From: Marsupella aquatica
Lineage: Eukaryota; Plantae; Marchantiophyta
NCBI GenBank assembly: GCA_973895155.1
Contig: OZ316898.1
Coordinates: 8,729,079 to 8,793,078 of the forward strand
Length of the DNA: 64,000 bases
Direction: 5' to 3'
Positions 1 to 37,491 of the stretch are shown here, in pieces. A program made the position numbers and the translations under genes. Below the pieces are notes generated by a model. The model was not told the origin of the DNA. It did no database searches and saw only the letters and a program-made list of their open reading frames with translations. Numbering within the stretch: position 1 is the stretch's first letter; every line of letters begins with the position of its first letter.

Positions 1-1365
1 ACTCCAACTATTAAGTTGAAATTATGTCAAAACTATTTGTGAAACTATCTTGCTTATGCTTTTATATACCAGTTTAAAATGCTAGTTAAGATGACATAGT
101 CAGGTCGGCACGAAATAATTCCGACCCACTTCTAGAAACTATGTTAGTAATCACATAAAGGGGTACAGTAAGTTCTACACATGCTAGACTGTGGATAAAG
201 GTCTAGAAATGAGTAAAATATATGATCTAGAACCTAATGTGTAAATCTTAATCTAGGTTTGGCTTAAAGGTATTGAATTAGATGTAGTTGAGCTAGTACT
301 TCTAAGATAAATAAATAAAATCACTAACCTGCTCCGCAATATATCTCTGCCCACCCTTGTACAAGCTAAATGGGTACCTTGGATGCCAGCATTGTAACTC
401 TTAGCACCACAGTGCTCACCAGTGCCCTTACTAAACCTTGCATTCAACCATGCGGACCTAAACAAGGCACTCGGACAGAGGAGAGTCAGTGATCGTACCA
501 ATCACTGTCTAAATGACAATGAACCAAAAAATGGATTGTGGGAGGTCTATACTCAATTTGAGGGCAAAAAGCCCACACATTACCCAACACACGAGTGGGC
601 ACCAACAGATCGGGCACGGGTGGATGAGGCACGCACCCAGCACACAAGTAGACATCGGATAGGGTGTCAGCCAATCACTCACGAGTGATAGGTGAGTTGC
701 GAGCACACACCGCTGACAGCTTGGAAGTTTAAAATTGGTAGGTGAGTCGCGAGTGGTCGTGAGTGGTCACACCATCGGTGACTCACGATCACATGCAGCG
801 AGGAGGGTCTCCATCATTGGCGCACATTGATGCCTCCGTACCCTCTCGGATCCTTGCCTCCTTGGACTCCTCGCTCGCAGGGGGTATAGGAAGGCAGGCC
901 TTGCGCTTGAGGCCTCATTTCCTTGCCTCCTTCTTGCCTCCTCTCTCGTCTCCTCACTCCTTGCCTCCCTCTTGCCTCGCTCTAGGGCTTTTGTTTTTGC
1001 CTCGCTCTTGGGATTTTTTTTCCGCCTCGCTCTAAGGCTTTTATTTCCGCCTTGCTCCCTTCCCTTTTGGGTCGCTCCCTCAATCATTGTTTGCCTGTTA
1101 GTGCCCTCTTGCAGCCTGTGGCATTCTCCATTGCTGCCACGCGTCATCTTAAATCTCACTCGCCCCTTACAATGTCTACTTCCTCCAGTTCTGAAGCTTC
1201 CACCACCTCCGCCAGTTCTCAAGAGTCATTGAACTTCAATTATAACTCTCTGTATGAATATGACCCTGAAGACCCGGATGTCCAAAAATTGGTTAACAAT
1301 GCGTTGGAGGCGTCAAAGAAAGCGCAGTTAACTTTTCCACGTAAGGCACCACCTGCTTCAACTTC

Positions 1366-2014
1366 TTGCCTCGCCCTAAGGGCGAGGCAACTTTACTTTA
1401 ATTTGGATTCAAACTTCTTATTAGGAAAATTTCTATATTCCTTTGCAGTCGCCTCGCCCCAAGGTCGAGGCGACGTCTACTTCATTCTAGATTTCTTGTT
1501 GCTCCGAAGGCATATTGGACCTTGTATCTTACATTAATAAAGGATCTTTAGCTATATTCTATTTTTTTCCTCGCTCTTGGGGCGAGGCAATGTCGTCTAC
1601 ATTCCCAAAAGTTGCCTTGCCCTTGGGGCGAGGCGATGTTATCTGCATTCCTAAATGTTGTCTGCATTCCCAGAAGTTGCCTCGCCCTTGGGGCGAGGCG
1701 ATGTCCTCTACATTCCTAAATGTTGTCTGCTTTCCCAGAAGTTGCCTCGCCCTTGGGGCGAGGTGATGTCCTCTGCATTCCTAAATGTTGTCTGCTTTCC
1801 CAGAAGTTGCCTCGCCCTTGGGGCGAGGCGATGTTGTCTGCATTCCTAAATGTTGTTTGCTTTCCCAGAAGTTGCCTCGCCCTTGGGGCGAGGCGATGTC
1901 GTCTGCATTCCTAAATAATGTTTGATTGCTTGGATGAGGTGGCAGGGCAAATTGCACTAGGAGCAAAGAAGATTTTGCAATCTTCTATTTGTCGCCTCGC
2001 CCCAAGGGCGAGGC
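1366..2014. repeat. Array of 21-bp palindromes GCCTCGCCC-NNN-GGGCGAGGC, including a 65-bp tandem unit (~5 copies, ~1590-1915)
   Basis: Copies start at ~1368, 1451, 1569 (degenerate), 1614, 1679, 1744, 1809, 1874, 1994; 65-bp period between 1614 and 1874. Confidence 0.95.
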
Positions 2015-3057
2015 ACCTTGAAAGTTTTCCACATGTCAATGTTAAAAATATGATGCTGACCATTTTGTTTTCAATGTTTCTTACCAGAAAAAAATCTTGA
2101 GAAGCCGGAGTTAAATATTATGGACGAGGATATCAAGGACTTTGTTTTCCCTGACCAAGATACTCCAGGATTTAGATGGGCACTAGAAGTTGGGGTGTCG
2201 ACGGAAGGCAGTCTCTTGATTTGTTTCAAGGGCCTCACGAGTCAATTGAATGACCGCAAGACAATTGTTACTCTAGGTCCAGTCATCCTTGTGAACACGG
2301 ACAACAACCGCAATGCAACGATTATTGTTGAGTCCAATGAGAAATCTCAGTGGATGAGACTTCTGGTGCCAATAAAACTCTACTCGACTTAATTTACTGA
2401 ATGTTGAGTGGATGGCTCGATTGGAGATAAGCGTAGCTGATATGGGATTCTTCCCAGATGGAGTAACAATTGATTAGATGTTTGAGAAGACGCGTTCTCA
2501 AATAAGTGGAGTTGACCTAGTGTTTGGATTTCTCTACGTAAAGAAGCACATGCATGACAATGCGGACAGTGTGGACCCTCCGTCTACTTGGATAGTTCAA
2601 AGGATGATTGAGAAGGCACATTTTTCATACGAGCAAGCAATCGACAAGAGTTTCATTTTTTGTCCAGAGTTTCAAGAGGCCGCGTGCCGGACGTGGATTT
2701 CAGAGATGAAGAAAAAAGAAGCAAAGCATAAGGCAAAGGAGAGAAAGAAGACAGTGGAAAGAAGTGTGCAATCAAAGACAGAAGAAACAAAAGCTTCAAG
2801 AGCCGGTTGTTCAACAAGAGAAACAATCTGGGAGTTCACGCCGTAAGAACATGGCTAAAAAAATTGAAGATGATGAGGGCCCCCAAAAAAAGCAGACAAA
2901 GAAGGCAAAGGTTGCGAAATCAAAACCAATGTCAGGGTTGACTTCAAACTTTGTCTTGCATCTAGAGGATGATATGTGTCCGACAGAAGGACCCAAAGAA
3001 GATGATGTGCTCAAAGGCCAAGAGGTTTTGCGTAATATTGAGCAGTATTATACTTTT

Positions 3058-3500
3058 GGCATCCGCAAAGTTTTTGATATTCCTGTAAAAAGTATTAATC
3101 CGCCATCGGCCGTTTTTGTATATCAAATGTTCAATCTTTTGCATGCAATGGAGATATCAAAGTCTATGATGAAAAACCCTGGACATGAACCACAAGTTGC
3201 TGATTTGATTCCGTATCGCGAGAGCACTAAACAGTTGCTTCATTATGACAACACACCTCAGGATAGGAAAGAGTTTTTGATTGGTGTGAAGAAGCATGAG
3301 ATCCAATTCCTTGCCATCAGTGGCCAGCATTCTGCAAGAGCTGCCCAATGGATCCAAGGGTGGGCCGAGACTGACGCCAAGCTGACAGATCTTGCCAACA
3401 AACTAAAGTATAGGAAAGCAAGGATCCTATCTGACCTCACTCCGAAGACAATTTTGGTTGAGCATTCAAGTTTATCGAATGCTGTCAATGATACTATGCA
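3058..3500 (+). other. ParB/Sulfiredoxin-like (DGQHR-type) domain segment
   Basis: VFDIPVKSINPP...EISKSMMKNPGHEPQV...FLAISGQHSARAAQ...RKARIL...SN follows the ParB N-domain pattern (IPIxxIxP ... LxxSIxxxG...P ... IxGxHRxxA ... N). The GQHR arginine is replaced by S. Confidence 0.5.
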
Positions 3501-3686
3501 ATTTAAGTCTTGTTTTTTAGAGACTATTGTTCATGCACAAAGGCAGTTTGAGGAGTGCGAGAAACCGCCGCGTCCAGGGATTGGGACCAATCAAAATACA
3601 GACAGGAAAAACTATCAGGTACATGTTGGAGCAACGCAAACTATTCTTGATCCGCTTTGTTTAAAGATTGTCAATGGTAGAGGTTT

Positions 3687-3869
3687 GCCTCGCCCCAAGG
3701 GCGAGGCTGCCTTTTCTTGTTTTCCTTGGTTAGAAGCAGATTAAAGCAAATGTTTGCCTCGCCCTCAGGGCGAGGCAACCTAGACTAGTCTCTCTAAGAA
3801 TAATTTCCTAGTTCCGTTTCAGTCAATTGCGGTGAGATGTAGAGGTTCGCCATGCCCTTGGGGCGAGGC
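3687..3869. repeat. Three more copies of the same 21-bp palindrome in predicted intron 2
   Basis: gcctcgccccaagggcgaggc (~3687), gcctcgccctcagggcgaggc (~3756), gccatgcccttggggcgaggc (~3849). Confidence 0.9.
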
Positions 3870-4635
3870 GGCTTAGCCTGTTTCAAACATAGGTATAAAT
3901 TTTCTAACATATGCATTGTACCCTGAAACTAATGTCAAGTCCATTGGATGTGCAGGATTGGTTTGCCCTGGCAAAGGTTACAATGGGGAAGTCAAGCCTA
4001 AAGAGCATTTATTGGTTACTTTTGAAGATGAGCTCTTTGAATTATGGCGGAACGTGTGTGAAAAATGGTTGAGTGGGAAGCTCCAAGACGGGGCTGGTGG
4101 GTATGGAGGGCCAAGACCCCCAAAATTGATCACTCCCGGTACCTTTCGATGCTTTGATGGAGAGATTAGTAGCAAACAGATAATTGAGATCTTGAAGGAC
4201 GTTGAAGAGGAGCGTGTCTTGCTGAAGAAGGATATCACCAACAAATCAGAGCTTGTCGCAATGGGAGACTTGGCCCTTACAATCAAGATAATGTCCAAAT
4301 TGAGAACAGTCATTATTGGCTATTTTGTGGAAAAGTATCGTGAGAAGTTTCCTGTTGGCACATCTTGGGAGTCTCTGGTGATATTGTTGCCTTCCTTGAA
4401 ATCTGAGCTTGAGATGACAAAATTGAGGAGAGCAGCGGGTGAGGTTTACCTCAACAATTCATTGAAGAAGAATGTGGTCAAAGAGAGTTTCCCACAAAGT
4501 CTGATGGTCAGACTAGATGGGTTGTATTGTAAAGAATTTGGTGGGATTGGTCATTCTCGCACGGAGCCTTTCTTGACATTTTTTAGTGATAATTTGATGA
4601 AGACAACCGTGCCGGAAATGCTACAAGAGCCTTTG

Positions 4636-5340
4636 CCTTTGTGTCCTCTTGCCATTGTTGACTTTAGTAGGCTCCGACAATATGTTTGGATCGATGCTAA
4701 AATTATTGCATTACTGCAATACATTGTGGATCTTCCAAGAAATCCAACAATTGTTGTTGTCATGACTGTGCATCCGGGGCCACTTGCTGCAAACATTTTG
4801 AGTGCCCTTAGGAAATTGCAACATGAAAAGGGAATGGACATCCACGTTGACTACGGGAGCTATCGACGGAGTGATACACCAGTTCCAGAGGGCTTACTTT
4901 TCAGTTGTGGTATGGAGGAGATAATCTTTGCAGGAATCACCACTGAGGAGAAATTTGATTGGAAGCAAGTGTTCAGGCCTGGATTTAATTGCCAATTTTC
5001 TTACAATTTGGCGATCGACCCTGATTTCCAAGTGGAAGACAAGACGGAGAAGCGAGATAAGAATAAGAGTAAGACAAGTAAGGAGATAGAGACTGAGTCA
5101 ACTTCGGCATTTCACATTGGAGATTTCTTACGAAAGGCTCCCATGTTTGAGATGGTGGGAAGTAGAGGTGGCTTTGTGAATATTCACGCTAAGCCAAAAT
5201 GTATGCTACAGAGTATTATTGAATTTTTTTCGGCTGAAAGGGAGACTATACTTGACTTTTTCTCGGGAGGACAGGTTATGAAGGTGTCATTGTTGTGTTT
5301 CAGAGAATGCTTTGCGTATTCAGACACTGAGGATGAATAT
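4636..5340 (+). other. Beta-class amino-methyltransferase (N6_N4_Mtase-like) fold, catalytic motif degenerate
   Basis: HAKPKCMLQSIIEFFSAERETILDFFSGG...SLLCFRECFAYS matches the HPtxKPxxLxxxLIxxxS.xGDxVLDPFxGSG...GRxxxGxE C-terminal block. Upstream CPLAIVDFSR sits where motif IV (DPPY/SPPY) is expected, and EEIIFAG matches the internal ExIxxxxK block. Confidence 0.6.
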
Positions 5341-6585
5341 GATTTCACTCAGGCATATGGAAGGGTTCTCTACGAGAAAGTTCCTTCCATAATGAGTGAC
5401 CGGATGGTCGGTTCCCAATTTGGTAGAGCCCGCGATGGGGTTTCCGAGCATGTTGGTGCCAAAGAAGGCGTAGACCAGGGCGAAGATGATATTGAGGAAG
5501 GAGAATTGGGTCACGACACATACGACAGGGTCACCCAAAATTTGGATGAACGTGGAACACAAGTGGTAGGTATTCCCTACTTTGGTGTGGGGTTGGCCGA
5601 TGTTGTGGGTCGACCTGAGGGCGACTCACCAAGAAATCTCTTTGCCGGTGTAGAGAATTGGATGCACCAATCGGACCCAGATCTTACATTGTCCACATCG
5701 GACGCACATTGGAAGGCAACCGCAGATGGTCTAGGCAATATTGACGCAGTAGAATTGGGAGAAATGTCAAACATTGCGCTTGCAAAGGAGGATGATCGTC
5801 AAGTACCTGAGACCGTTGCAAATGAAGAAGAGAAGGCAGGTGCTTCAAATCCTCCCCTGTCTCCTCTATATTGCTCATCAGAGACTAAATTGGTTTTTAC
5901 AAGTGCTTCTACAGGAAGCCCTGTAGTATTATCATTTTCACAAAATTTTGGATCCGAGATCGGCAGGACTAGATATATGAAAACAGTCCGTCCTGCAACT
6001 CATTTTATATGGAGAAATGGACCAAAGGTTGGAATGATAGAATCACTAGACGATGCTCCAAAGATAATGGCAAAATCAGATTACAAAAAACTGAACTTGA
6101 GACTGAGCCCAGTTTTTGCACCCCCATCCTTTGAAGAGCAACTTCCCAGTGGTATCAATTCTGAGATACAGAGTGTTCTAGGTGATCAAACAATAGATGA
6201 ATTTGGGCATTTTAGCATTGGAAATTATTAGCCCTTTCTTTGGTTCTTGGTATTTTAATGACAATCTAAGCTTTATCTTTGTAATAATATACATTTTTAT
6301 AGACCAAAGTTTCGTCGTAGAATCTCCTTCCTCAAAGGATTTTATTGGCATTCCCTCGAAAAGCGTTGCTGTGGAGGAAGGGTTTGACCCAGGTATACTT
6401 TGGATCTAAAAAATGGCAAGTGAATGTAATTAATGTTTTTCTAGGAGGGTCGCCCCAGGGTCGTTCCTCTCTACTTCAAATGCTATAACAAAGTTTGTTT
6501 GATTTCAAATTTTGAGAGTTTTCCTCCATAGTAATTGTTTAAACTTTGAGTCGCATTGACTAAGGGCTTATTTTAATGTTTCCAG

Positions 6586-7624
6586 AATTCACTCCAATAC
6601 TACACTCTCCGATCCGGCGAAAGCTCTTGGTTCTTGACCTTAACAAGATTTGTTGGGATTGCATTAAGACCAGAAGCTCAGGACCATGGCAAAATCAGAC
6701 AAGTTTACGTGGTGTGCACTGGGGGAGACGTGGAGGGTTTAATTTCATGTATGTGGAGCGCCCATACCTCCACAAATTTCTATATGCAGCTTTCATGGTT
6801 TTTGATGTCGCAATTTGGACCTGTGCAAGGAGGCCAAAAACAATGGACTTAATGGAGTTGATTTTCACTGAGGAGGAGCGACAGAAGTTCAAGTTTGTCT
6901 TTACTCAAGAAGATACCTTTGATAGTTGCATCCAAAGGCCAGATATAACAGATGGGAAGGCCAATTTACTTCTGAAGAATTTGCAAACCATTTGGGACCG
7001 TTTTCCAGAAAATATGATGCTTCTAATACAGTTCTTATTGATGATTCTCCATTGAAGGCATTTTTGAATTATGACGAGAATGGATTGTTTCCAAATCCAT
7101 TTACTCACACAGCTTCAAATGACACTTTTTTGCCCGAGATATTATGGCCGTATCTTTGCAAATTGAGAAAGGCTTACTGCGTTCAACATTATATCACTGT
7201 CAACAATCCAAAGTGGTCTGTTTTCAATTTATTAACAAGCAAGGAGGATCATGTTGCCATCTATGCTCGTTTGGAACAGAAGTGGGGAGATTGTCGTTGT
7301 ATCCATAAGGAGTTTGGAACCATCTTGGATGTGACTCCTGAAGAGATTCCTTGGGACGGAAAGAACGAGGTGCAACATTACCCACCACTAGAGACGTGGA
7401 CCACGGATGAGATCGAAGAAACTGCAAACGTAATACTTGGAGACAACTATTCTGGTCCTCATACACAAAATAGAAGGCATTTTATTTGGAAAGTTCTCAG
7501 AACTAGGGATCTCACCAATAAGTTTAAGAACCACCATGCGAGAGATACTTGCAACCGTGACATCCGCTATGATAAATCAGGAAGTAGACTTTCTTGTTCA
7601 AATGAGTTTTGTCTTGATCATTAG
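6586..7624 (+). pseudogene. FCP1/NIF (NLI-interacting factor) HAD phosphatase-like domain, one frameshift near 7010
   Basis: KLLVLDLNK..., YVERPYLHKFL, FDVAIWTCA, LLKNLQTIWDRF then (other frame) YDASNTVLIDDSPLKAFLN are NIF-family motifs. DLN replaces DxD. Confidence 0.75.
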
Positions 7625-8279
7625 GAGATAGGGTTGCTCTAGTGCCTACCCTGAATTGTACATTCATATTATGTCAAAGGATATGTTTTGAACATGTAGG
7701 ATAATGTAAATAATTAGGATATGCTTAGTGTGAGGCTCTCTCACTGGATTGGACAATTTAATAATTATATAGTGGGTCAATCTCATTTTGACCCTTGATT
7801 TATGACCATCTATATTTTTTAATTTATAGATGGTCTGAGTGGTATTGGCCTCTGATTTTTGGACTAAATTAAATTTACTCTAATTTTTAAATTAATAGAA
7901 TATATGATTTAAGTTATTATTAAACATTTGGGTGAAAAAAATAAAATTTGGGCGTTCAAAAGTGTATATTTGGGCTGAAAAAAATTAGCTTTTGGGAATG
8001 CTTTAATAGAAATTTGGCCTGAAAAAAAATAACTTTAGGGTTCATCTTATGGACTTTTAAAAGTACAGTTTTAATGAATGCCGCGTCCCTAACCTGGGCC
8101 TTAAATCCAGTTTAGTGCCATGGTGCGACCTCGACCACCAGTAGGGGTGAGGGTTCGGGCAAGGAGGTGTGTAGTGTCCCCGATTAGCCCTAAGTCGGGC
8201 TAAGCCGATATACTTACTGGTATAACGCTTAAGCTATTCGTACTAGTCATAGGTATCTTTTATCTTCCACCGCTGGAAT

Positions 8280-11200
8280 TGTGATGCCTAGACAGGAATC
8301 ACTCGGCCGGTTAAGTGGGTAAAGCAGGAAGGCACCCTAGGAACACCTTAGTATAGTGACAAAACAAGGAAAATATAAACAATTAGGGGCAACCATGGAA
8401 CCCGGGCAGAGGCCGGAGGTAAGGCTGAGGGTGAAAACCCGATTAGGGTTAGGGCGCGTTAAGCGTCGGCGGCTAGGAAGGATCAACGGGAAGAAGGACC
8501 GGCAGAGGAGAGGGGTAAGGAGCGCTTGCAGGAGATGGTGGCTCATTTGCGAGCACGAACTAGGCAGACGACTACGGGAGGCCAACTACTGTCAGCTGCT
8601 TAGGCAAGCACTCGGGGAGAGAGTAGATACCGACGATCGACCTAAGGAGGGTATGAGCAACGTCAATCAAGCGGCACATTTCTGGGGATGCCTGTTCGAA
8701 CGGGCAACTGAGTACATCAAGACTTACGAGGACGAGGAGTCAGAAAGGGCAGCTCGAGAACGGCAGGAGCTCGCTCGATTGTGGGAGCTGCAGAAGACGG
8801 CTTTCTTAGGAGGCGAACTCATCAAGGACGAGTTCCTATGGACGCCTACTTCCAATCAACCCGACGATCTTCTGTTTTGCAAAGACAGCGTCGTCGGCAT
8901 CCGAGAGGCCATCAAGAACTGCAACGACATACACTGGGAATTAAAGGGTAGCACGGAAAGGTGGACCCGGGCAACGGTGCTAGGAGAAACCTCCACGGCA
9001 GCAGAGATGAAGAGGAAGGGGGCCGTCAACGATGAAGCCACCCCGGCAAAAAGAACGAGGTCGGCGGCACCAAAGAAGCCAGCCGAGCAGCAGAGCAAGG
9101 GGCAGGGAGAAGCCGAAGAGGAGGAGGTCGATCCCATCAAGGCCATTCCAACCAGGGATGACACCTGGAAGGGCTGGGCGGCAACCCTACCGGTGGAGGT
9201 GCAACTACATTTTGCACGGGAGGAGGATGCATGCTTTACGGCCATGCAGACCAAGAAGTACCAAGGCTTCATGGCCGGATCCAGCTTGGAGGCCTTTGTA
9301 AGATTACCATGGCTGAAGCCGGAGGTACCGGAGTCAGACCTATTAGAATTCGTGGGGTCATGGGAACCCGAGACCAATTGCACGAGGATATATGGGAAGG
9401 ATTTCTATCTTACTCCCAAGGTGATTGCCGAAGTGTTTGGCTTGCCGATGGGCAATAAGACCAAAGTTGATACCAGGAAGACCTTGCCTGACAAGGAGTT
9501 CCGGTCGTTCCCCGGGCCATCAACGAAGAATGGCTTCTTCCGGAACACCTGCACCAACCCGCACATAGGAGAGATGATCGACTTCTTGCGGGTGACCATG
9601 CATTGTAACTTACCGAGGGCAGAGATCGGCAAGGCACAGGTCTATCTGGCAGAAAGGCCAGACCCAAGCCGGGACTACAACGGGTACCTCCTCAACCAAT
9701 TGAAGAAGATCTTAAAGGAGGAGCAGCAGGTAATCGGCATGGGGAGCGTGTCGCGGCTTGGCTATCACATGCCGCTGTTGTGCCGGTATGCCAGAGGTCA
9801 GACTTTTGCCCCGGTACTTCCCCTGCAGGTAAGGGCACCCGAGGAAACTCCAACGCCGAGGCCGTTGGCTGAGAAGCCTCAACCACCTGTTAGTCCTACG
9901 ATCGAGCAGGTGTTTAGGCCCAAGAAGGAAGACTTGCCGATGCAGCAACCAGGCATGCAGAGTCTGCTGAAACTACTGGAGAAAGAAAAGAAATCGGCAT
10001 CGGCAACAACAACGGCAACGGCAACAATGCAGGACACTACTACAGAGGTAGGCCTACACCGGCTCACAAGAGAAAACCCCTTTGCTGGAGACAAGAAGAG
10101 AATCAGGCCGGAATCCAAGCCAGGTGTTCGAATGTACGTGGGAACCTCAACCTCCAAATCTGAGGCAGAATTGCCTGAAGCTCCTACCGAGGAAGAGGAG
10201 AGGGAGAAGCCGGACGTCCAAGAGGTAGAGGAGGCAGTGGAGGACTGCAACCATGATAATTCCGGCTATGGGTCGGACCATCACGTTCCAGGAGTAAGGA
10301 CCTGTGGCCGGTTTGTCCCCACACTTCCAAGGGTAGTGCGAGGGGACCCCAACCAGCAGAGTAGCCCTGAGTCTCCCCCACCAGATGTCGCTCCCCCGAG
10401 CTTCGACGGCATAAAACAGACGGTGCAGGAATTTCAGGAGCGAATCAAGCAGGAGGAAGAGGCCGCCCTGGCTAAGGAAAAGGATTTACCAGGAGGAGAT
10501 TGGCCGGAGGACATCAGGCGGCTAGCCGAAAAAGGAAGCAAACCTCTAGCCACGATTGAAGAGATCCGCAGGACGGCGTGGGAGCAGAGGCCACGATGGG
10601 CGATGCCGATCACTTCTACTTACTCCACCTACGCTAAGAATAGAGCCATGGAGTATGGTGAGATGTGTGGGGAACTTGCGCTCGGCATCTTTGGAGAGGA
10701 GTTGGAGGTAGGACCCTTTTTTCATAGGGAGCAGTTGGAGAAGCACCAATTAGAAGAAGCGGTGGCTTTAGAGAGAAGCAAGAAGGACGAGGTCATTCGG
10801 CGGCTTAGGAGGATGGAAGCCGAGATTGAAGATCTAAGGGCGGCCAAGAAAGCCCAAGATGAACTGCGGATTAAACGACATGAGCTGAACATCATGCAGG
10901 GGCAGTTGGACGCCGCGCAGGCTGATAATCAGAATATCAAGGATAAACTGACTCAGACACAGGAAGAGTTGGCCGACACGATCAAAGAGAGGGAAAAGTG
11001 GAAGCAAGAGCTGAAGAATACAGAGGAGGCCCACATAACAGCCAACAGCCGGGCCATGGCGGAGACCCAAAGAAAGGAATGGGCATTGAAAGGGGAGCTC
11101 GAGAAAATCCGCGGAGCCCTTGAGCAGAAGGAGGTCGAGTTAGGGAAATCCTATCAAGGGATTATGGCGCTGCAGCAGGAGCTTGCGTCCCTGACGGCCA

Positions 11201-12939
11201 GCTTCAAGGCCGACCTAAGGGAGAAGGACGAGATGCTCGAACAGACTTACGCCAAGATGAACCAGATGGAGTCTGTCATCATTGCAGAGCTCGACAAGGA
11301 GCTAAGAGCAACCCAGGAGGAGAGGGCTACCTTGAAGAAGGAATTGGAGAAAGCCCACAGGGAGCAGGAGGAGGCCAAAAACGAGCTGGAGGGGGCACGT
11401 AAGGACCTGGATGAAACCCAAGAGGAGTTGGAGGAAATCACGAGGAAGATGGAGAACCTACAGCGGCGGGCCGACAACCAAACAGAGCGGCTGAAGAAAC
11501 AAGCCGCAGTATTTAAATGCTTAGCTGCAGCAGGTCCATCTCCCGTTGGGACAAACCAGTTACCAGGGGTGGTAATTGCCGAAGGACAAGCCGCGTCAAC
11601 TGCACCAGTGCCGGAAGTAAGTGGGAAGGGGAAGGGACCAGCTGCCGAGCCACCAACGAAGAAGAAGCGGAAACCTTCAGGGTCAAGGAGTAATATGACT
11701 TCACAGGCCGTGGTGATCAAGGAGGTAGACCCAGCACCGACCCCAGACAGGGTCACGGCTAAGGATCCAACTACCCTAGGGGAAGGGGAGGCCGAGGCCG
11801 AGGGAGTGGCTGAAGCCGAAGCCGTGGGAGTGGCTGAGGCCGAAGCCGTGGGTATTGCCGAGGCCGGTGTCGAGGCTGAAGCCGAAGGTGGACCCAGTCA
11901 GGCCGATGGAGAGTTGACTCGGTCAAGGGCAGGTAATCTGTCAGTAGGCGGGCCAACGGCAGTGGCTGAGGAGGAAGTGTTGGGGGCGTCCATTGAGGAT
12001 CCACCACCGGTGTCGTGACGGTGCAAGGGCGCCGTTCCTTTTAGGGAGGGCGGACGTGGAGGGAGGAGGCGTGAGTGGGCAGGGCGGGCACGGATCTCCA
12101 CGTTTAGGATTAGGATCAGAACCAGGAGCGGCCCTGACACTTAGCTTAGTGGGATTGCGGTTCCACTGGTAGGAGCAACACTTGTGCTCCTGCCTTGCTG
12201 TACATAGGTAGATTCGGGCAAGTAGATTACTGTCAGGTAGATTAGGCTTACGATGCAAAGAATGGCGGATCCACTACCAGGATAAGTACCTGGGCAGCGG
12301 GGAGCTCAGGGCCTCTTCTTTAGCAAGTTTTTAGTTTGCACCAGCCGGGCTGGGATCAAGTAGTACGAGAAGCTCTCGGTTAGTCATACAGTGACCCTTG
12401 TGTATATTCATGTTTCCTCATGCCTAAGAGCTGAATAGAGTTGGCCTCACGGCTTAGTTCGCAGAACTTGTGTATGAGATGTACTGTTTGTATGGCAAGT
12501 GCATGGTATGACTCAGTCAGAATGAGTCATTTTGCTATTTGTGTGTCGCATTAACTTGTGTGAAGAGTGCCCACATCAACAGAAGGAAGGAAAGTAAGCA
12601 GGGGAGTGATAGTTGGATGTGTCGAGCTGAGAGAGGTCTTAGCGGCTTAACCAAGCCTATTGGGGATCATTCCGGCGGCGGAATCCAAACATACCTAACA
12701 AGACGGAGGGGAAGACAGGGGAAGACAAGGGAAGGCCTATATTAGGCCGGCTACGTATCTCATGACCCGATGAAGGATCTGTCCAGTATATGTGTGTAAA
12801 ATGTTAATAGTAGTAGTAGAAGGTTAGCAGCGTCCCATGCCGCTAAGCCGCGGAAACGGCCTCGCCAAGCACGAAACCTGTGGGAATCGGCTTGAGCTGG
12901 GGGGTTTCTTGGGTTTAGGGAGCCATGGGACGCACCACA
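8280..12939 (+). repeat. 5' LTR (4,660 bp)
   Basis: Starts TGTGATGCC, ends CGCACCACA; about 17 substitutions seen by eye versus the 3' LTR. Confidence 0.95.
8395..12018 (+). CDS. LTR-encoded ~1,207-aa protein (5' LTR copy): Arg-rich N-terminus, plant-retrotransposon accessory-ORF-like domain, long coiled coil, acidic repeat tail
   Basis: Open frame 8356-12018, first ATG 8395. LLEFVGSW...RIYGKDFYLTPKVIAEVFGLP resembles the Athila env-like/Transposase_32-type motif (by eye). Heptad-rich region ~10700-11510, PTKKKRKP NLS-like motif, EAEAVGV repeats. Confidence 0.8.
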   Translation: MEPGQRPEVRLRVKTRLGLGRVKRRRLGRINGKKDRQRRGVRSACRRWWLICEHELGRRLREANYCQLLRQALGERVDTDDRPKEGMSNVNQAAHFWGCLFERATEYIKTYEDEESERAARERQELARLWELQKTAFLGGELIKDEFLWTPTSNQPDDLLFCKDSVVGIREAIKNCNDIHWELKGSTERWTRATVLGETSTAAEMKRKGAVNDEATPAKRTRSAAPKKPAEQQSKGQGEAEEEEVDPIKAIPTRDDTWKGWAATLPVEVQLHFAREEDACFTAMQTKKYQGFMAGSSLEAFVRLPWLKPEVPESDLLEFVGSWEPETNCTRIYGKDFYLTPKVIAEVFGLPMGNKTKVDTRKTLPDKEFRSFPGPSTKNGFFRNTCTNPHIGEMIDFLRVTMHCNLPRAEIGKAQVYLAERPDPSRDYNGYLLNQLKKILKEEQQVIGMGSVSRLGYHMPLLCRYARGQTFAPVLPLQVRAPEETPTPRPLAEKPQPPVSPTIEQVFRPKKEDLPMQQPGMQSLLKLLEKEKKSASATTTATATMQDTTTEVGLHRLTRENPFAGDKKRIRPESKPGVRMYVGTSTSKSEAELPEAPTEEEEREKPDVQEVEEAVEDCNHDNSGYGSDHHVPGVRTCGRFVPTLPRVVRGDPNQQSSPESPPPDVAPPSFDGIKQTVQEFQERIKQEEEAALAKEKDLPGGDWPEDIRRLAEKGSKPLATIEEIRRTAWEQRPRWAMPITSTYSTYAKNRAMEYGEMCGELALGIFGEELEVGPFFHREQLEKHQLEEAVALERSKKDEVIRRLRRMEAEIEDLRAAKKAQDELRIKRHELNIMQGQLDAAQADNQNIKDKLTQTQEELADTIKEREKWKQELKNTEEAHITANSRAMAETQRKEWALKGELEKIRGALEQKEVELGKSYQGIMALQQELASLTASFKADLREKDEMLEQTYAKMNQMESVIIAELDKELRATQEERATLKKELEKAHREQEEAKNELEGARKDLDETQEELEEITRKMENLQRRADNQTERLKKQAAVFKCLAAAGPSPVGTNQLPGVVIAEGQAASTAPVPEVSGKGKGPAAEPPTKKKRKPSGSRSNMTSQAVVIKEVDPAPTPDRVTAKDPTTLGEGEAEAEGVAEAEAVGVAEAEAVGIAEAGVEAEAEGGPSQADGELTRSRAGNLSVGGPTAVAEEEVLGASIEDPPPVS

Positions 12940-12943
12940 TTTT

Positions 12944-12960
12944 TGGCGCTAGATGGAGGG
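12944..12960 (+). promoter_or_regulatory. Putative primer binding site
   Basis: TGGCGCTAGATGGAGGG, 4 nt after the 5' LTR CA. The cognate tRNA could not be assigned by eye. Confidence 0.7.
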
Positions 12961-13008
12961 GGCATTTCTTAAGCCGTGAGATATGAAGTTAGAACGGAAG
13001 CGTAGGTA

Positions 13009-14979
13009 ATGACTGACCTTACGCCGAGGGAAGAAAGAGTGATTCAACGGGAGAGAGCTCGACTGCAGCAGCTGGCCGGGTGGCATGATACACAGCAACT
13101 GAGAGGGGCAGAAAGAGCTGGTAGCTCCGAAACTGGAAGTGGCATCGAAGAAGACATACCAGAGGAAGAGTCGGTAAGGAGAAGTGAGTCTCCAACCGAC
13201 ATGGGGGAACCAGAGGCACGGCAAGACGAGAGGCCAGGGACCAGATTGAGCCAGCGGTCGCGCATACATTACAAAGCATTTCATGGGAGAGGAGATGAGG
13301 ATCCGGACGAATGGTTGGATGATTTCGAGGGAACCGCTGCAGCAAATGGAGAATCGGCCATCAAGATGCAGATTCTTCCCGGCCTGTTCAAGGGTGAGGC
13401 TAGGCCTTGGTACAGAGCATTAGATGTGGAAGATCAAGCCATCTGGGATATCTTCAAAACACTCTTTGTTAAGGAGTTTCGACCCATTGGAACTTCAGAA
13501 CTAGCAGTGCTGAAGTTGGGACAACTTCGGTTCAAGGAGAACAAATCCTTCAGGAAGTTCTTGCAACGCTTTCAGAAACTGGTAAGACGTACAAAGACCA
13601 ATGCATCTGAAGGTATGCAACTTCAATGGTTGGTGAATGCTTTGCCACAGAAGATGAGTTTTGCAATTAGGAAGGAGAACCCGGAGACTTTAGCCGAAGC
13701 AATTAAGGATATTCAATTATACATTAATGCAGATATCACAAGCCGGAAGAAACAGCTTAAGCCTGAGAGTTCCTCATCAGAGGAGGGATCACCCCATAAG
13801 AAAAAAGATAAGAAGAAGAAACATTCCAAGAAGTCTAGAAGTGATAAGTCAAGCTCGGATAGTGGGAGTAGCAAGAGTGAGTCATCTTCTAGTTCTGAAG
13901 AAGAAAAAACTAGGAAAAGGAAGGGCAGAAGGAGAGGGAAGACGAAAGTCAAGATGGAGGCTAAGCCACCAGATAACATCGTAGCCCTTACCGAGCAACT
14001 TAAGGCTATCATTGCAGAGGTAAAACCAAAGAAGGTAGTACAGGAGGATAGCTCTGTATGGTGTGCCTTATGTTATAAAACCGGACACCATAAAGATGCG
14101 TGTCCTAAGCTTAATACTAATCATGTTCGGCATGTGGCCGAGATCAGACCATGTCAGGGAGAAGTAGAGTACTTTTTGGGAGATGCCGCTGATAGTGTTT
14201 TCGGCATCAGTGAGACTGGAGCACGAGACCTATCCAACAGACCTGCATCTCTGTGGTCAGGGTTAAGGAACAATCCAGGAGAGATGTATCCTCGGATTAT
14301 TCAGAACCCGTCAGTACCTCCTAGGCCGAATGTGCAAAGATTTGCGGCGTGCTATAATTGTGGTCAACCTGGCCATTTTGCTAGAGAATGCCCGAATGCA
14401 CGCAAACAGGGTGATGGACAACCAGCTCAGCTATGTATGGGATGCCGACAGGAAGGTCATATGCTAGGGCAATGTCCTACTTGGTTGGCAGGCCTGGCCG
14501 CAAATCATAAGCTTTTGCCGATCAAGATCTTACCGCCAGGTACTACCCCCGGAGGAGTTCAAATCAACCACATCGAACTAGGATGGCAAGAGGATGCCGA
14601 GGCAGAGTTCGTACCATCTGATGATGAGGCCGAAGCCCTATCAACCTTCTCAAAGGAGGATTTAGATCATGATTGCTACCGGGTCTCTACTCGATCTACC
14701 AGAAGGAAGGAAAGGTGGGATGGGCTGGCCAAAAATAAAGGGAAGGTTACGGAGGAAAGGATCGACTCTTCGTCAACATCAACAGAAGGAGAAGGGAGGG
14801 CTCCGGCAATACAGGTAAGCCATGAGCCCACCAGTGAAACCAATCCTTCACAAGATAGCGACTTCAATCGAGATCATCCTAAGTTGTTCTACCCCTCTGT
14901 TACGGCTAGTGTTAAGGAACAACTAAGAGAATTAGAAACCCTGGAGAATACCGAAGCCATTGCCAAGGATGTAAAATGA
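13009..14979 (+). CDS. gag: Gag (retrotransposon gag domain + three CCHC zinc knuckles)
   Basis: FHGRGDEDPDEWLDDF...KGEARPWY...FVKEF capsid-like block; CALCYKTGHHKDAC, CYNCGQPGHFAREC, CMGCRQEGHMLGQC. Ends at a TGA in frame with the protease segment. Confidence 0.92.
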   Translation: MTDLTPREERVIQRERARLQQLAGWHDTQQLRGAERAGSSETGSGIEEDIPEEESVRRSESPTDMGEPEARQDERPGTRLSQRSRIHYKAFHGRGDEDPDEWLDDFEGTAAANGESAIKMQILPGLFKGEARPWYRALDVEDQAIWDIFKTLFVKEFRPIGTSELAVLKLGQLRFKENKSFRKFLQRFQKLVRRTKTNASEGMQLQWLVNALPQKMSFAIRKENPETLAEAIKDIQLYINADITSRKKQLKPESSSSEEGSPHKKKDKKKKHSKKSRSDKSSSDSGSSKSESSSSSEEEKTRKRKGRRRGKTKVKMEAKPPDNIVALTEQLKAIIAEVKPKKVVQEDSSVWCALCYKTGHHKDACPKLNTNHVRHVAEIRPCQGEVEYFLGDAADSVFGISETGARDLSNRPASLWSGLRNNPGEMYPRIIQNPSVPPRPNVQRFAACYNCGQPGHFARECPNARKQGDGQPAQLCMGCRQEGHMLGQCPTWLAGLAANHKLLPIKILPPGTTPGGVQINHIELGWQEDAEAEFVPSDDEAEALSTFSKEDLDHDCYRVSTRSTRRKERWDGLAKNKGKVTEERIDSSSTSTEGEGRAPAIQVSHEPTSETNPSQDSDFNRDHPKLFYPSVTASVKEQLRELETLENTEAIAKDVK

Positions 14980-15999
14980 GCAAAAGCATTGTTTGCTTCG
15001 GAAGACCCAACAGCTGTGGAGACTAGCGTGGCAAAACTGGCCGAATCCAAGACGGAAACACCACCAGAAGAGAAGCCGATTGTTCCCTATGACCTGGCTA
15101 AAGATGTACTAGAATCTAGAGTCTCGGCAACAGTAGGTCAACTATTGAAAAATAGCCCGTACTTCCGGAAGCAATTAAGGAAGGCTATTCTCAGCAAGCC
15201 GAGATTACCCAAGGTAGCAACCAGATCCGACGTACTAATGATAGAAGAAGATCAAGGAGCCCCAACATTACCATTAATGATTCAAGGAGAATTATTACTA
15301 CGGGTACCCATCGATGGAGGATCAGGGGTATGTATTATGATTGATTCAACAGCAAAAGGGTGGGGTCTAACACCGGAGATGACTGGAAGAGTGTTGAACA
15401 TGGCCAATGGATATCAGGTCATTCCGACGGGAGTGTTAACCGGCATCAAGACAGAGATAGGAGGTATCTTCTTTAGCATTAACTATGTAGTAATGAAGCC
15501 GGTAAATCCTACGTCATTCCGGCTATTGATTGGTAGGCCATGGCTGTACCTAGCCGAGGTAATAGAAGATTGGGGTAAAAAGCAGTTCACTTTCGGGACC
15601 CCCTCTATCACGGTATCCTGGGACACTAAGGATGACCGTAGGAAAAGCATAAGGGAAGTAGATGGGTACGATAGTGGACTGGAGTCAGCCGATGAAGTAC
15701 GTTGGTTAGAATGCCTCACTAACCTAACCGAAGAAGGTGTCTTTGGACCAGAGGTACCCCCCAGCGGATTATGGCAAGAACCAATGGAAGGTGACTTGGA
15801 AGAAGAAGACGAAGAGGTCGAGGACTGCTTTACAATAGAATCCACCTTTTTAGCTGCAATTCCGGAGGAAGTAAAGGATGTAGACCAATTGGATGAAACG
15901 GCTAAGTGGGGAGCAGTAGCAGGGACAGTGGATTTTCTGCAGGCGTTGTGGCAGAGCCGACGGGGTCCACAACGCCATCGATCATCGGCAAGGAATTAA
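14980..15999 (+). CDS. Aspartic protease segment (same frame as gag, after an in-frame TGA)
   Basis: VPIDGGSGVCIM active-site-like motif and LLIGRPWL. Confidence 0.85.
   Translation, partial: AKALFASEDPTAVETSVAKLAESKTETPPEEKPIVPYDLAKDVLESRVSATVGQLLKNSPYFRKQLRKAILSKPRLPKVATRSDVLMIEEDQGAPTLPLMIQGELLLRVPIDGGSGVCIMIDSTAKGWGLTPEMTGRVLNMANGYQVIPTGVLTGIKTEIGGIFFSINYVVMKPVNPTSFRLLIGRPWLYLAEVIEDWGKKQFTFGTPSITVSWDTKDDRRKSIREVDGYDSGLESADEVRWLECLTNLTEEGVFGPEVPPSGLWQEPMEGDLEEEDEEVEDCFTIESTFLAAIPEEVKDVDQLDETAKWGAVAGTVDFLQALWQSRRGPQRHRSSARN
15930..15989 (+). promoter_or_regulatory. Candidate -1 programmed ribosomal frameshift signal (slippery heptamer + H-type pseudoknot)
   Basis: G_GAT_TTT at 15930-15936 in the protease frame, 5-nt spacer, perfect 10-bp stem 15942-15951/15967-15976; loop GCCGA (15956-15960) complementary to TCGGC (15985-15989). 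The RT ORF is in the -1 frame. Confidence 0.7.
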
Positions 16000-18900
16000 A
16001 TACCAAGGGATCGGCATACAAGCCGTTTACGAGGGCAGAACAAATTGAGGCCCTATTAGAAGCCGAGAGAGCACAGCGGCCTAACTCTCAGGAGCAAGAG
16101 GTGGATGAGATGGACAGACACGATCTAGAGCCAAGGCAGGAAGGGGAGCCGACCACTAATTCAAAACCAAATAGACCGGTAAGGGGACAATCTATGGACA
16201 CCAAGGAAGGGACCGACTCGGCTAGTCCAGCCGAGATCCCAGTTTATGGAGGTATGAGATTAGAGAGACTGGAAGCCGAACTGGACCCGAATTTGAAGAA
16301 GCAGATTAATATGATCCAAGCACGGCAATATCGGAAGCTCGACTTAGGAGAGGGAAGAGAACTGAACTTAGGGAGAAACCTAGCACCTGAGCTCGAGAAA
16401 GAGATCAGTGACTTATTGATTGAATTTCAGGATGTGTTTGCATGGAGTCACCAAGATCTAAAGGGAGTAGATCCAACACTAGGGGAACATCGAATTGATC
16501 TCATGTTAGGAGCCAAATTATTTCGACAACCAATTCGAAGGATGAACCCGAAGTATTCCCTGCTGGTCAAAACAGAAATCGACAAACTAGTGGAAGCTGG
16601 ATTCATCACTCCAGTCCTGCATTCAGACTGGGTGTCTCCAATTGTGATAGTTCCCAAGAAAGCTGGACCCGATGGTAAACCCAAGATCCGGGTTTGTCAG
16701 GATTACAGGAAGCTGAATGAAGCAACATTAAAAGACCATTTTCCTTTACCGTTTACTGATATGGTACTAGACATGGTAGCCAGTCATGAACTATATTCAT
16801 TCATGGATGGATACTCTGGTTATAACCAAATCAGGATTCGGCAGGAAGACCAAATCAAGACGGCCTTCATCACGGAATGGGGGATCTATGTCTTCAATCG
16901 TATGCCGTTTGGACTCTGCAACGCACCAGCTATGTTCCAACGATTAATGGTGAACATTTTTCATGATTACTTGAGAAAGTTCATGGAAATCTTCATTGAT
17001 GACTTTGCAGTATTCGGGAAGGCATCGAAACATGCTAAATACCTCAGGAAAACCTTCATGAGATGTAGAGAGGTGGGTCTCAAGTTACACCCCGATAAAT
17101 GTTTTTTTTGCAGTAACCGAGGGGGTGCTACTAGGTCACAAGGTATCAAGGAAGGGCATTGAGATTGACAAAGGTAAGCTAGCAGTATGGCTAGATATCA
17201 TGCAACCTAAGAACATAAAGGATGTAAGATCCTTCTTGGGATGCATTGGTTACTATCGCCGGTTCATCAAGGATTTTGCCAAGCTGGCTTTACCATTAAC
17301 CAATATGCTCAAGGCAGGAGCAGACTTCGAACCCACACCCGAACGAGTCACAGCGGTGGTAGAATTGAAGCAGATGTTAGTAGAGGCCCCAGTCATGATA
17401 GCACCGGACTGGAACAAAGATTTTCATGTTTTTGTAGATGTCTCGGGCTTCTGTATTGGCTCAGTACTAAGTCAGTTGGATGAGAAAGGAAGGGACCATC
17501 CCATATACTTCGCAAGCCGTCAGCTTGCCGATGCCAAACGGAACTACTCTACCACGGAAAGAGAAGCATTAGGAGTCATTTATTCTTGTAAAAAGTTTAG
17601 GCATTATTTACTAGGGTACAAGGTAATCTTTCATACTGATCATGAAAGTTTGAAGTACCTAGTCAATAAGCCGGACCTTACAGGCAGAGTAGCAAGATGG
17701 ATTTTGCTATTACAGGAGTTTGACTATGAGCTGAGGATCAAGCCGGGAAAGTTACATGCCAATGCCGACTTCTTTTCAAGGATCACAGGTAAACCTGCCA
17801 CGGATTGCATCGATGATCGATTCCCCGACGAGGAGCTATTCGTTGTGGAGATAGCTGGTACATGGTACCCTGAGATTTTACAATTTCTCAGCACTTCCAG
17901 ATTACAGCCAGGATTAAGCCGAGAGCAAGCCGCAGTCTTTGTGCGAAAGGTCAGACAGTATCAGTGCATTAAAGGCATACTGCACAAGCATGGAATCAAC
18001 GGCACGATTCAAAGGTGTTTGGAAAAGAGAGAGGTAAAACGAGTCCTACGGGCCATGCATGGAGAGGAGGCCGGAGGACATTTTGCCCCAGTAACCACGT
18101 CTAAGAAGATATTAAATGCCGGTTACTGGTGGCCCACCTTGCACAAAGATGTCTATCAGTTTATCAAACAATGCGATCCTTGTCAACGAGCGGGAGGACC
18201 AAGGGCGTCCACCAGGCATCCACTGCACCCTATTCTACCTCTGGCACCATTCGAGAAGTGGGGTATTGATTACATTGGACCTCTGAAACCACTGACCCAC
18301 CCTCGACGGAACAAGTACATAATCCTGGCTACGGATTATGCAACTAAATGGGTAGAGGCCAGACCAACAACGAAGGATGATGCAATTACTACGGCTAGAT
18401 TCATGTATGAGCAGATCTTCACCAGGTATGGAGCACCCCTAGAATTAGTTAGTGATAGAGGAACCCATTTTTTGAATGATATAATTAGTCGTTTAAATGA
18501 GCAGTATTTAGTTAAACATAGGCCTACTACTCCCTACCATCCAAAGGCAAACGGGTTGACAGAACGAGCAAACGGAATCATAGGAAAGATATTGAACAAG
18601 ACAGTAGCTCAGAACAAACTCGATTGGGATGATAAATTGTTTGCTGCTGTTTTTGCTTACAATCTTGCCTATAAATCCACTACCGGTCATACACCCTTCT
18701 TCTTAACCTTTGGACAAGAAGCCCTGGTACCCATGCAACTTGAGATACCGACATTTCAAGTTACAATTGAGGAAAGAGCCTCAGCGGAGGAGAGCCTAAA
18801 GGAGCGAGAATATAGGTTAGAAGCTTTAGAGGAAGCGAGAATGATTTCAGCCGAGAGAGTAGAATATAGACAGAATATCATGAAGCAGCAGTATGATAAA

Positions 18901-19173
18901 AGGTTAAAAGTAGTTAGTATTCATACCGGTGATCTTGTGCTACTTTATGACAGTAGGTATAGTAGGTTTCCAGGAAAGCTTTACACTCACTGGTTAGGAC
19001 CCTTTAGAGTAACCATGATGTTCCCCAATGGCTCCGTACAATTGGCCAACATTACGGGAGAGGTATATCCAGTTCGCATCCATTATGACCGCCTCAAGAA
19101 ATACTATATGGACGAAGATGAAGTTGTTCGTGAGGACGCTTCACAATTAAGTGGGGAGCTATGTGATGCCTAG
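15930..19173 (+). CDS. pol: Pol: reverse transcriptase, RNase H, integrase (one frameshift in T8 run 17102-17109)
   Basis: RVCQDYRKLN, MDGYSGYNQI, MPFGLCNAPA, FIDDF (RT); VDVSGFCIGSVL, RNYSTTEREAL, TDH (RH); H-H-C-C, GIDY...SDRG...NGLTERAN, GPF (INT). Removing one T restores PDKCFFAVTEGVLLGH. The stop codon lies inside the 3' LTR. Confidence 0.93.
19149..19161 (+). promoter_or_regulatory. Polypurine tract
   Basis: AAGTGGGGAGCTA immediately before the 3' LTR TG, inside the integrase reading frame. Confidence 0.7.
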
Positions 19174-23821: not shown

Positions 23822-24609
23822 GGAATCCTCCCTCAGTTAGTGACTCGGACTAACTCCCGGCTTGGGGCTTTTCAAGCCATCGACGCGAAAGAACTTTGTG
23901 ACATACAATGGGTGGCAATCCCTACCATTAGTCCACACCCGGTACGTCCCTTAAAATGGTGCCTTTGCCCAGACAAAGCATACTCACCACACCAGTTACT
24001 TGCAGAAACATTAGAGGGAAAAGACTACATTTACTTAGCAAAGCATCAGTTTACATGGTTGATTCGACTTCAAAGGGGGTCAGCAGGCCCAATGGCAGTC
24101 GATGCCCAGTCTCTACGAGGCCCCGCCTCGCACTTGCCCAACAAGCTCGACTCTGGCTCTCACTCCTTAGTGCGCTCTGACCCTGCTCAGGCCGGGACTC
24201 CCCGTGCCTCACCTATCTTTTGCCGAGATAACTAAGCCTTCTCCCCCTTCCATAGCGGAAGGGGAAGCCTAAATACTACAGTTTGCGGAAGAGAACCGGA
24301 GGATACTACCTTTCGGGATACTACCTACTGCCTAACTACCTTGACTACTGGTCGTGCCGCACTGACCGGTTGACCGTCGACGACAAGGGTGCCAACCGGG
24401 ATGGCAGCGGCCAAGCCTTTTGACAAAAATCTAGTCCATTGATGAACTCCATCCTTTGTTGGCTGATCCTAACTGATCCGGCCCTAATTCTTCCTACTGC
24501 CGCTAATCGGTGCCTAATGACAGTCATTCTGTCGTTGCACCTAACCGAAAGATGTCGTTGTCTTAACTGCCTCGCGTGGCGCCTGCTTCCACCCTTCGCT
24601 AACCACCCC

Positions 24610-29715: not shown

Positions 29716-29914
29716 ATACCCTCCAGATTTAATCTCATAAGTAATAAAAGAAGCAATGGGTCCAGCCTCTTCGAAACCCACTCTTTGTGTACAGCATAAC
29801 TATTGGAGATGATTGTCTATATGACGAGGTATTTGTTCAATGCACCCTCAAAATGAAAAGTGTTACTAGAGGTTTTGGGTATGTTAATTTAAGGTCTATC
29901 AACAGGCAGGATCA

Positions 29915-36812: not shown

Positions 36813-37491
36813 AGGTGGTGAAAACAGCTTTCGTCTCCATCCGAGAGATACGCCTATAGACAGCCCAGCACGGAACGTTTGGAATTTCAGCCGAAGGTTG
36901 TGATCTCTGTTCTCTTGATCCACATAAAAGTGTCGGTATTGTTAATTAAAACTTTCGCCGTACCATATCCCTTAGATCACGGAGTCCGTGCGATTGCGTT
37001 CTTGTGGTTTAGAGTTATAACTGGAAAAGCGGGAACTAGGAATACTTCTGGTCCATTTGAAACTCCTGCAGCGTCATAGCTTTGACTGCATTGCAGCTTC
37101 TTATTCACGTCGAAGCATTTCTTTCCTGATTCCTGTTTTTGCCTTTGCAGTCGATTCCGTAAAGAAACTCTGCTTTATCCTCTCTGGAACTTGGCCCAGC
37201 TGCCTGCTCCGCTCTGCTTTACTTTGCTTTGTCCCCCTTCGTGGTTGCTATTCTGCACCCTATGCGATTGGCATCGTTGATTTCCTCGCGCAGCGCAATG
37301 ATTAATTGAGGAGAGACGATTTCCACAGAATGGAAGAGCTCTACTGAAAATGCAGTCTCCCACGTTCCACTCATCAGCATTGATGGCTGCTTCGGATGGC
37401 AAAGGTATGTGGATATAGCAGTCAGCTGTTCAGAAGACGAGTGATGACGTGCAGTGGGATTTTTTAGTTCCTCGAGCTCGCTGTCGCATTA

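Follow-up and report, generated by a model that had tools for sequence, protein, structure and literature searches.

Short palindromes in the predicted introns of a transposon-borne ParB-like gene of the liverwort Marsupella aquatica as candidate self-targeting sites

The stretch of DNA considered here (called the window throughout) comprises 64,000 nucleotides of Marsupella aquatica, positions 8,729,079 to 8,793,078 of the forward strand of contig OZ316898.1 in assembly GCA_973895155.1, and contains, at its left side, part of a multi-copy DNA transposon with a CACTA-type right end. Among the cargo of this transposon is a decayed gene for a protein in which a ParB/Srx-fold domain is fused to a methyltransferase fold, and the predicted introns of that gene harbor twelve copies of a 21-bp palindrome. 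Both the status of the gene as transposon cargo and the fusion to a methyltransferase fold had been missed in the preliminary description of this DNA, which was concerned with the palindromes. The features of the gene are as follows (window positions; palindrome copies are given without strand):

974–1057, forward strand: half-site tandem with a 25-bp unit (GCCTCGCTC plus centre), 5' of the predicted start, from the repeat and motif scan
1172–1340, forward strand: predicted exon 1, short, of low complexity, with no homology support
1341–2087, forward strand: predicted intron 1, GT..AG, phase 1, with nine palindromes
1366–1390: palindrome copy 1, perfect over 25 bp, one unpaired base
1451–1471: palindrome copy 2, one mismatch
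1568–1588: palindrome copy 3, two mismatches, in a 46-bp variant of the 65-bp unit
1589–1916, forward strand: 65-bp tandem array of five units, with palindrome copies 4 to 8 (1614, 1679, 1744, 1809 and 1874)
1994–2014: palindrome copy 9, exact
2088–3618, forward strand: exon 2, encoding an N-terminal region of unknown fold, a lysine-rich linker and the ParB/Srx-fold domain (~3055–3495, motif ISGQHS)
3619–3955, forward strand: intron 2, GT..AG, phase 0, with three palindromes, its junction fitting predicted spliced relatives
3687–3707: palindrome copy 10, exact
3754–3778: palindrome copy 11, perfect over 25 bp, inside a ~66-bp unit that is repeated in relatives
3849–3869: palindrome copy 12, two mismatches, the one at 3853 private to the window copy and the one at 3852 absent from the variant rows of the runs
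3956–6231, forward strand: exon 3, encoding a helical region, a beta-class N4C/N6A methyltransferase fold (~4560–5380) and an acidic tail

When up to two mismatches are allowed, the palindrome is found twelve times in the 64-kb window (seven exact copies, three with one mismatch and two with two, starting at 1368, 1451, 1568, 1614, 1679, 1744, 1809, 1874, 1994, 3687, 3756 and 3849, the last one ending at 3869), just as had been counted initially, while the mean count in 100 shuffled windows was 0.00 and every other position of the fully scanned window differs from the pattern by at least four mismatches. Nine copies lie within 1341–2087 (intron 1) and three within 3619–3955 (intron 2), and the window scan found none in the exons of the gene, in the neighboring NIF gene, at the right end of the transposon or in the other 56 kb, all twelve full palindromes and three clear half-sites thus being located within or just upstream of the ParB-like gene. 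The initial claim that the copies are confined to introns therefore stands for the full copies, at least as far as the introns are predicted, but not for the half-sites GCCTCGCTC at 974, 999 and 1024, which precede the predicted start codon and mean that the motif family is not strictly intronic.

The 3-nt centre is not the free spacer it had been taken for, as it reads CAA or its reverse complement TTG in ten of the twelve copies (TAA and TCA being seen once each), and the two best copies (1366–1390 and 3754–3778) are perfect 25-bp palindromes save for one unpaired central base. The argument for a binding site that had been built on a free spacer is weak. The tandem array of 65-bp units does, as supposed before, account for only a part of the set, namely five copies, with one more in its 46-bp variant; the palindrome word has been multiplied as part of three distinct repeat units (65 bp in intron 1, a separate one of ~66 bp in intron 2 and the 25-bp half-site unit upstream), which have nothing else in common. 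Spacings of 83, 117, 46, four times 65 and 120, and, in intron 2, of 69 and 93 reveal no common helical phase. The flanks of the copies, previously described as unrelated, are so only in part: the word TCTAC is present within 14 nt of the palindrome in 5 of 16 flanks (permutation p 0.001; 4 of 14 flanks and p 0.016 if the 46-bp variant is left out), so several copies thought unrelated share descent, and in other organisms the copy at 3756 belongs to a separate repeat unit.

Both predicted introns show GT..AG ends and preserve the frame across their junctions. The junction of intron 2 is bridged by two predicted relatives, P0002 (Calypogeia fissa) and P0027, which align contiguously across both of its sides, and, among the 53 relatives extending as far as the end of exon 2, 45 terminate no more than 30 residues from that point. 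Of the 199 tblastn matches, not one falls within 1–2060 or inside intron 2. Intron 1 is the weaker prediction, drawn from phase and the absence of coding homology only. The same two relatives (gene predictions, not transcripts) place the ParB and methyltransferase parts on one chain, and ten of the matches to the profile of the ParB half also match that of exon 3. The copy of the gene seen in the window is broken by a frame change near 2389, a stop at 2475, a break before 2860 and a further frame change near 4023.

That the product is ParB-like, as the preliminary description had it, is supported by fold searches. For a model of 2980–3618 (predicted local distance difference test score, pLDDT, 93; 59 sequences) a search of 48,161 chains returned ParB/Srx-fold proteins as all of its top eight hits (Z 7.7–4.6, the next being 3.0), with Z 7.7 for PadC and 7.5 for KorB and, for the best row (6ryk_B), a root-mean-square deviation (rmsd) of 3.3 over 98 aligned residues. 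Foldseek placed Noc and ParB at the top of its PDB matches (E 1e-3 to 3e-2, best Noc 1.1e-3) and phage ParB-like proteins at the top of the viral ones (best E 4.9e-5). It is the consistency of these matches on which the assignment to the ParB/Srx fold is based, the Z values being only middling, and ParB was not detected by Pfam, PHROG or PDB sequence searches.

The exon 3 region matches CcrM in the fold search (Z 17.1, rmsd 4.9, 211 aligned) and RsrI in a profile search (E 1.2e-5), and motif I, responsible for S-adenosylmethionine binding in methyltransferases, is kept as a conserved DFFSGG at ~5254. The catalytic motif of beta-class amino-methyltransferases is (D/N/S)PP(Y/F/W). The place where DPPY would be expected (~4660) reads DFSR in the window and DFSR, DFGR, DFTR, DLLR or DLAR across the family, and none of the 13 relatives carrying motif I has the standard catalytic motif anywhere; judging by sequence, the domain is not a standard active enzyme, as the catalytic motif is missing.

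The protein family is a large one: a profile of the N-terminal half gathers, at E up to 0.001, 141 clusters (50% identity), an evident false match (P0147, DNase II) among them. Calypogeia is represented by four rows, and, of the 30 relatives looked up, 12 could be named (ten from Riccia and two from Diphasiastrum), while in a tree of 58 of the 59 ParB domains (P0015 being excluded as too short) the window protein falls, among close relatives, into a supported clade with P0013 from Calypogeia (97/87). No relatives were found among 35 candidates from viral contigs and 67 from prokaryote genomes. Neither was a ParA ATPase seen among the long open reading frames of the window that were scanned (the left part of the element lies outside it), and an incomplete literature search yielded no description of the land-plant protein family or of the motif.

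The remaining parts of the element, whose right end is split by a long terminal repeat (LTR) retroelement, are the following:

6627–7621, forward strand: second cargo gene, with an NIF/FCP1-like phosphatase domain and a frame change near 7008
7926–8027, forward strand: three short subterminal-type repeats, unrelated to the palindrome
8079–27480, forward strand: nested LTR retroelement insertion, TG..CA, with target duplication ATGAA (8074–8078 and 27481–27485), splitting the transposon end
27486–27492, forward strand: last bases of the transposon, with the end TAGTG (reverse complement CACTA), just after which relatives diverge

Contigs from four of the seven listed runs were compared with positions 1–8300 of the window. 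Related contigs numbered 383, 5532, 136 and 64 per run, belonged to several identity classes and covered all 30 bins of that region in three runs and 18 in the fourth. Copies continue past 8079 to a shared TAGTG end and diverge thereafter (five X1 contigs, agreement 0.64, and seven X2 contigs, agreement 0.75). The terminus of EnSpm/CACTA elements (CMCT clade) is given as 5'-CAC..GTG-3' (PMC12730594), and the right end TAGTG at 27492 fits this, a comparison that concerns one end only, since the element starts outside the window, to the left of position 1. A terminus of the Helitron or Replitron kind was also weighed, the TAGTG end being preferred. No EnSpm-type transposase is present in 1–8078, and it may lie to the left of the window or be missing. 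All four flanks seen past the TAGTG end start with AT, which suggests a target preference or a 2-bp duplication. As for the second cargo gene, its product has a cysteine-containing C-terminal end that is conserved in relatives P0156 and P0157, and a transposon-borne gene resembling C-terminal domain (CTD) phosphatases could conceivably touch the control of RNA polymerase II. The end of the ParB half is joined to an NIF domain in P0155 from Diphasiastrum, which hints that the ParB and NIF two-gene cassette is old.

Related copies of the element differ from the window copy in their palindromes. A joint of 1591 to 1985 in X1 and X2 contigs skips 1592–1984 and thereby removes the five palindromes of the array, a joint of 3624 to 3709 in X2, X5 and X6 contigs skips 3625–3708 and with it one intron 2 palindrome (copy 10), and loose ends together with a go-back joint at 3781 show that organisms B and C carry more than one copy of the unit around 3756. 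The variant table, at a threshold of 3%, lists 39 variant places, all of them inside intron 2. When only variants reaching at least 25% in some run are counted there, 1 of 54 arm sites varies versus 29 of 274 other sites (Fisher p 0.026), this single arm variant restoring the consensus, and the difference is sharper at G/C sites (0 of 47 in arms versus 18 of 103 elsewhere, p 0.0007); at 3%, the G/C sites give 3 of 47 versus 20 of 103 (p 0.03). The unpaired central base at 3766 varies between C, G and T and is the only strongly varying base of its palindrome in related copies. Two changes, C>T at 3760 and G>A at 3772, occupy mirror positions of the palindrome and may reflect compensation or plain CpG decay. 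Two further observations concern the same region: at 3735–3740 the window is three bases longer than the majority of related copies, and in one X2 contig the sequence beginning at this spot is joined to the right end of the element, which could point to an insertion site and an excision footprint. In addition, a joint in one X2 contig connects 920, in the upstream region, directly to 3762 (in the palindrome at 3756), perhaps marking an internally deleted derivative.

On balance, the palindromes probably constitute a self-targeting array, i.e., candidate sites bound by the ParB-like protein of the element itself. Speaking for this are the restriction of full sites and clear half-sites to this one gene and the DNA just upstream of it, the ParB/Srx and methyltransferase folds of its product, the mobile, multi-copy nature of the element, the lower variability of the arms in intron 2 at the 25% threshold, the amplification of the word in three repeat units with copy numbers that differ among relatives (as is the case for VANC target motifs in VANDAL introns), and the algal precedents compared below. 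A dimer made by an intact copy would read two arms of 9–12 bp in double-stranded DNA, tandem duplication would raise the density of sites where no coding sequence is lost, and, once bound, the protein would label the element as self, regulating it or shielding it from host silencing; such a protein could act in trans, and dead copies such as the one in the window would be included. The methyltransferase fold would then probably help to bind DNA or to hold the dimer together instead of acting as a standard catalyst. A far more ambitious version, tentative and on the doubtful side, would have it that land-plant CACTA-type transposons possess a bacterial-derived self-recognition module, in which the ParB-fold protein, its nucleotide pocket rewired to GQHS, is loaded at parS-like palindromes in the introns and spreads from there along the element encoding it, and in which the methyltransferase fold, its active site changed to DFxR, recognizes, protects or deposits a non-standard DNA mark that counters silencing by the host. 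Every subfamily would evolve a palindrome of its own, and plants would have, beside VANC, a second anti-silencing system of prokaryotic origin.

Several points weigh against binding by the ParB-like protein and have to be set out before its rivals. Z values below 8 can reflect a common arrangement, and the ParB domain matched by the model is the nucleotide-binding one and not the reader of parS, while no helix-turn-helix was identified in the helical region following the ParB fold, a region that the fold search scarcely covered. The arginine motif with which ParB binds cytidine triphosphate is GxxRxxA (GxxR). In this family it is replaced by GQHS (G in 57, Q in 57, H in 59 and S in 53 of 59 rows, with T in 5), because of which a chromosome-partition system made up of the array and the gene is unlikely, and so is the true parS role that had been suggested initially. 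The deficit of arm variants, moreover, is not significant at 3% (4 of 54 versus 34 of 274, p 0.21), the 25% threshold was picked after the table had been seen, and over the repeated unit the summed depth is too high and can conceal minor variants, so the support for arm constraint is modest; nor do the variable columns of the 65-bp array differ by much (2 of 18 in arms versus 10 of 44 outside). Finally, the shared flank words point to a common descent of several copies, and likeness alone would thus need no selection.

These last points are also the ones that keep alive the strongest competitor, improbable though we consider it, namely that the palindromes are a neutral structure to which nothing binds: a GC-rich, quasi-palindromic unit of ~35 bp that was duplicated and inverted within the introns and whose arms have been kept alike by slippage, gene conversion and template switching. 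Besides the lack of significance at 3%, the word TCTAC beside 5 of 16 flanks, the five copies belonging to one 65-bp array, the loss of copies in some relatives and a centre found in both orientations relative to a shared flank all speak for such an origin. It fits less well with the palindrome word being the only part common to three different repeat units, with the CpG-containing arms being, at the 25% threshold, less variable than G/C sites elsewhere, and with inverted-repeat arrays also being found beside the ParB-like genes of red-algal elements.

Less probable still is the binding of the sites by some other factor encoded by the element, such as a transposase or a TnpA-like regulator in its unseen left part. 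TnpA of the Arabidopsis Spm element does bind dense motif clusters, the search for a reader domain in the ParB protein identified none and the window does not extend to the left end of the transposon, but the clusters bound by TnpA are, in that report, those at the termini (bioRxiv 10.64898/2026.08.24.746577), whereas the palindromes described here are at least 4.2 kb from the right end, which has different repeats.

An action of the palindromes as RNA, whether through hairpins or through longer stems between opposite copies that would affect splicing or yield small RNAs, is quite improbable. Both introns fold far better than their shuffles (z -11.3 and -5.4), and scrambling the motifs abolishes the signal in intron 2 (z from -6.0 to -0.2), which means that its strong folding stems from the palindromes themselves; any palindrome folds, however, which makes these z-scores circular. 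The symmetric partners at 3760 and 3772 would suit paired arms but are expected from CpG decay too, pairing needs no single fixed sequence, the best copies would have a loop of 1 nt, and no Rfam family came near its gathering score (four weak rows, best E 0.06). The splicing-hairpin alternative raised in the preliminary description has thus gained no positive support. As for a dispersed genomic micro-repeat or a host factor site unlinked to this gene family, the idea is scarcely credible with the remaining 60 kb of the window containing no copy at all and with the exact matches found elsewhere (one viral locus and at least 119 loci in metagenome contigs, 119 with a single match and one with a double) looking like unrelated prokaryotic hairpins, none of these at least 120 loci encoding a relative of the protein or resembling the element.

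The proposed binding of the palindromes by the element's own ParB-like protein can be compared with a number of known systems. Repeated palindromic sites near the gene are typical of the bacterial ParB–parS and Noc–NBS systems. These share with the window such sites and the ParB N-terminal fold, but the window has GQHS in place of the arginine patch, no identified helix-turn-helix, no ParA in sight and a eukaryotic spliced gene within a transposon. VANDAL elements, on the other hand, are Mutator-like elements. Their VANC target motifs have been amplified by tandem repeats in VANDAL introns, and binding by VANC has been shown (Hosaka et al., PMC5735166). Common to both cases are a transposon-encoded protein and short motifs that are dense in non-coding DNA, including the introns of the protein's own gene, and that are gained and lost in tandem (PMC5735166, PMC10398659); the VANC motifs, however, are 8–9 nt long, non-palindromic and in one orientation, and it is for VANC that binding and hypomethylation have been demonstrated. 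Pfam scans revealed no VANC domain in the window protein, no direct comparison with VANC having been made.

Closer in composition are two algal cases. Petroll et al. reported tandem inverted repeats beside the ParB-like PAG3 genes of Plavaka elements (EnSpm/CACTA) in the red alga Bostrychia moritziana and proposed self-binding, which was untested there (bioRxiv 10.1101/2025.02.11.637652). This gives the binding-site reading a precedent that the preliminary description did not have. Like the element in the window, these are of the EnSpm/CACTA type and have a ParB-like accessory gene, a PF01555-type methylase domain and tandem inverted-repeat arrays at the ParB gene, but their ParB is fused to a 2-oxoglutarate oxygenase (PAG3), their methylase to SET (PAG2), and their arrays are adjacent to the gene, whereas the window combines ParB and a methylase lacking DPPY in one protein, has intronic arrays with an NIF phosphatase gene next to them, and comes from a land plant (a distinction drawn from the published descriptions). 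In Ectocarpus, the giant DNA transposon Sola1-1_Ec32 encodes one accessory protein with both ParB-like and N4C/N6A methyltransferase domains, which has been proposed to bind and modify its own element and may represent a new class of accessory proteins (PMC12477816); this element, however, is of the Sola superfamily and from a brown alga, and the main text of PMC12477816 does not contain the string "palindrom". Other clades of ParB-linked methylases have been described as well (PMC4738411).

The locus, then, resembles by analogy the designs of Plavaka PAG, Sola1-1_Ec32 and VANC, the last of which is the proven case, while its occurrence in a land plant, the CACTA-type end, the intronic arrays, the fused degenerate methyltransferase and the NIF partner gene set it apart, and the idea of self-binding had already been put forward for algae. 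Given that two algal genome papers of 2025 propose that ParB-like accessory proteins of transposons bind and modify their own elements, and that neither, as far as its accessible text goes, tests this, the locus offers a defined candidate site of 21–25 bp beside a protein family that is large (141 clusters) and occurs in liverworts as well as a lycophyte, which makes the idea directly testable. If it is true, a second plant system of transposon self-recognition would stand beside VANC, made from bacterial parts; if it is false, what is left is a dead transposon with tidy intronic repeats.

The rest of the window contains further elements and genes. The insertion that splits the transposon end is composite: its outer TG..CA block (8079–8279 and 23827–27480), probably a ~3.85-kb solo LTR that contains a minus-strand frame of 702 codons (24907–27012), is itself split by a Ty3/gypsy element at 8280–23821, whose LTRs of 4,660 bp are 99.6% identical and which is flanked by the target duplication GGAAT. 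Each of the LTRs of this inner element contains an open frame of 1,225 codons (8341–12015 and 19223–22897) that matches no Pfam family clearly, and it is unusual for an LTR to carry a protein gene of such length. Further non-coding tandem arrays, unrelated to the palindrome, are found at 29826–30760 (87/125 bp, with an inverted arm), 40791–41595 (197 bp) and 41998–42363 (182 bp), and the ordinary plant host genes comprise a BRCT-containing one, probably for a CTD phosphatase (31574–35370), a PaO-type Rieske oxygenase (37468–40530), a leucine-rich repeat receptor kinase, read from its translation (43080–46292), and a VID27-like gene (61001–62890).

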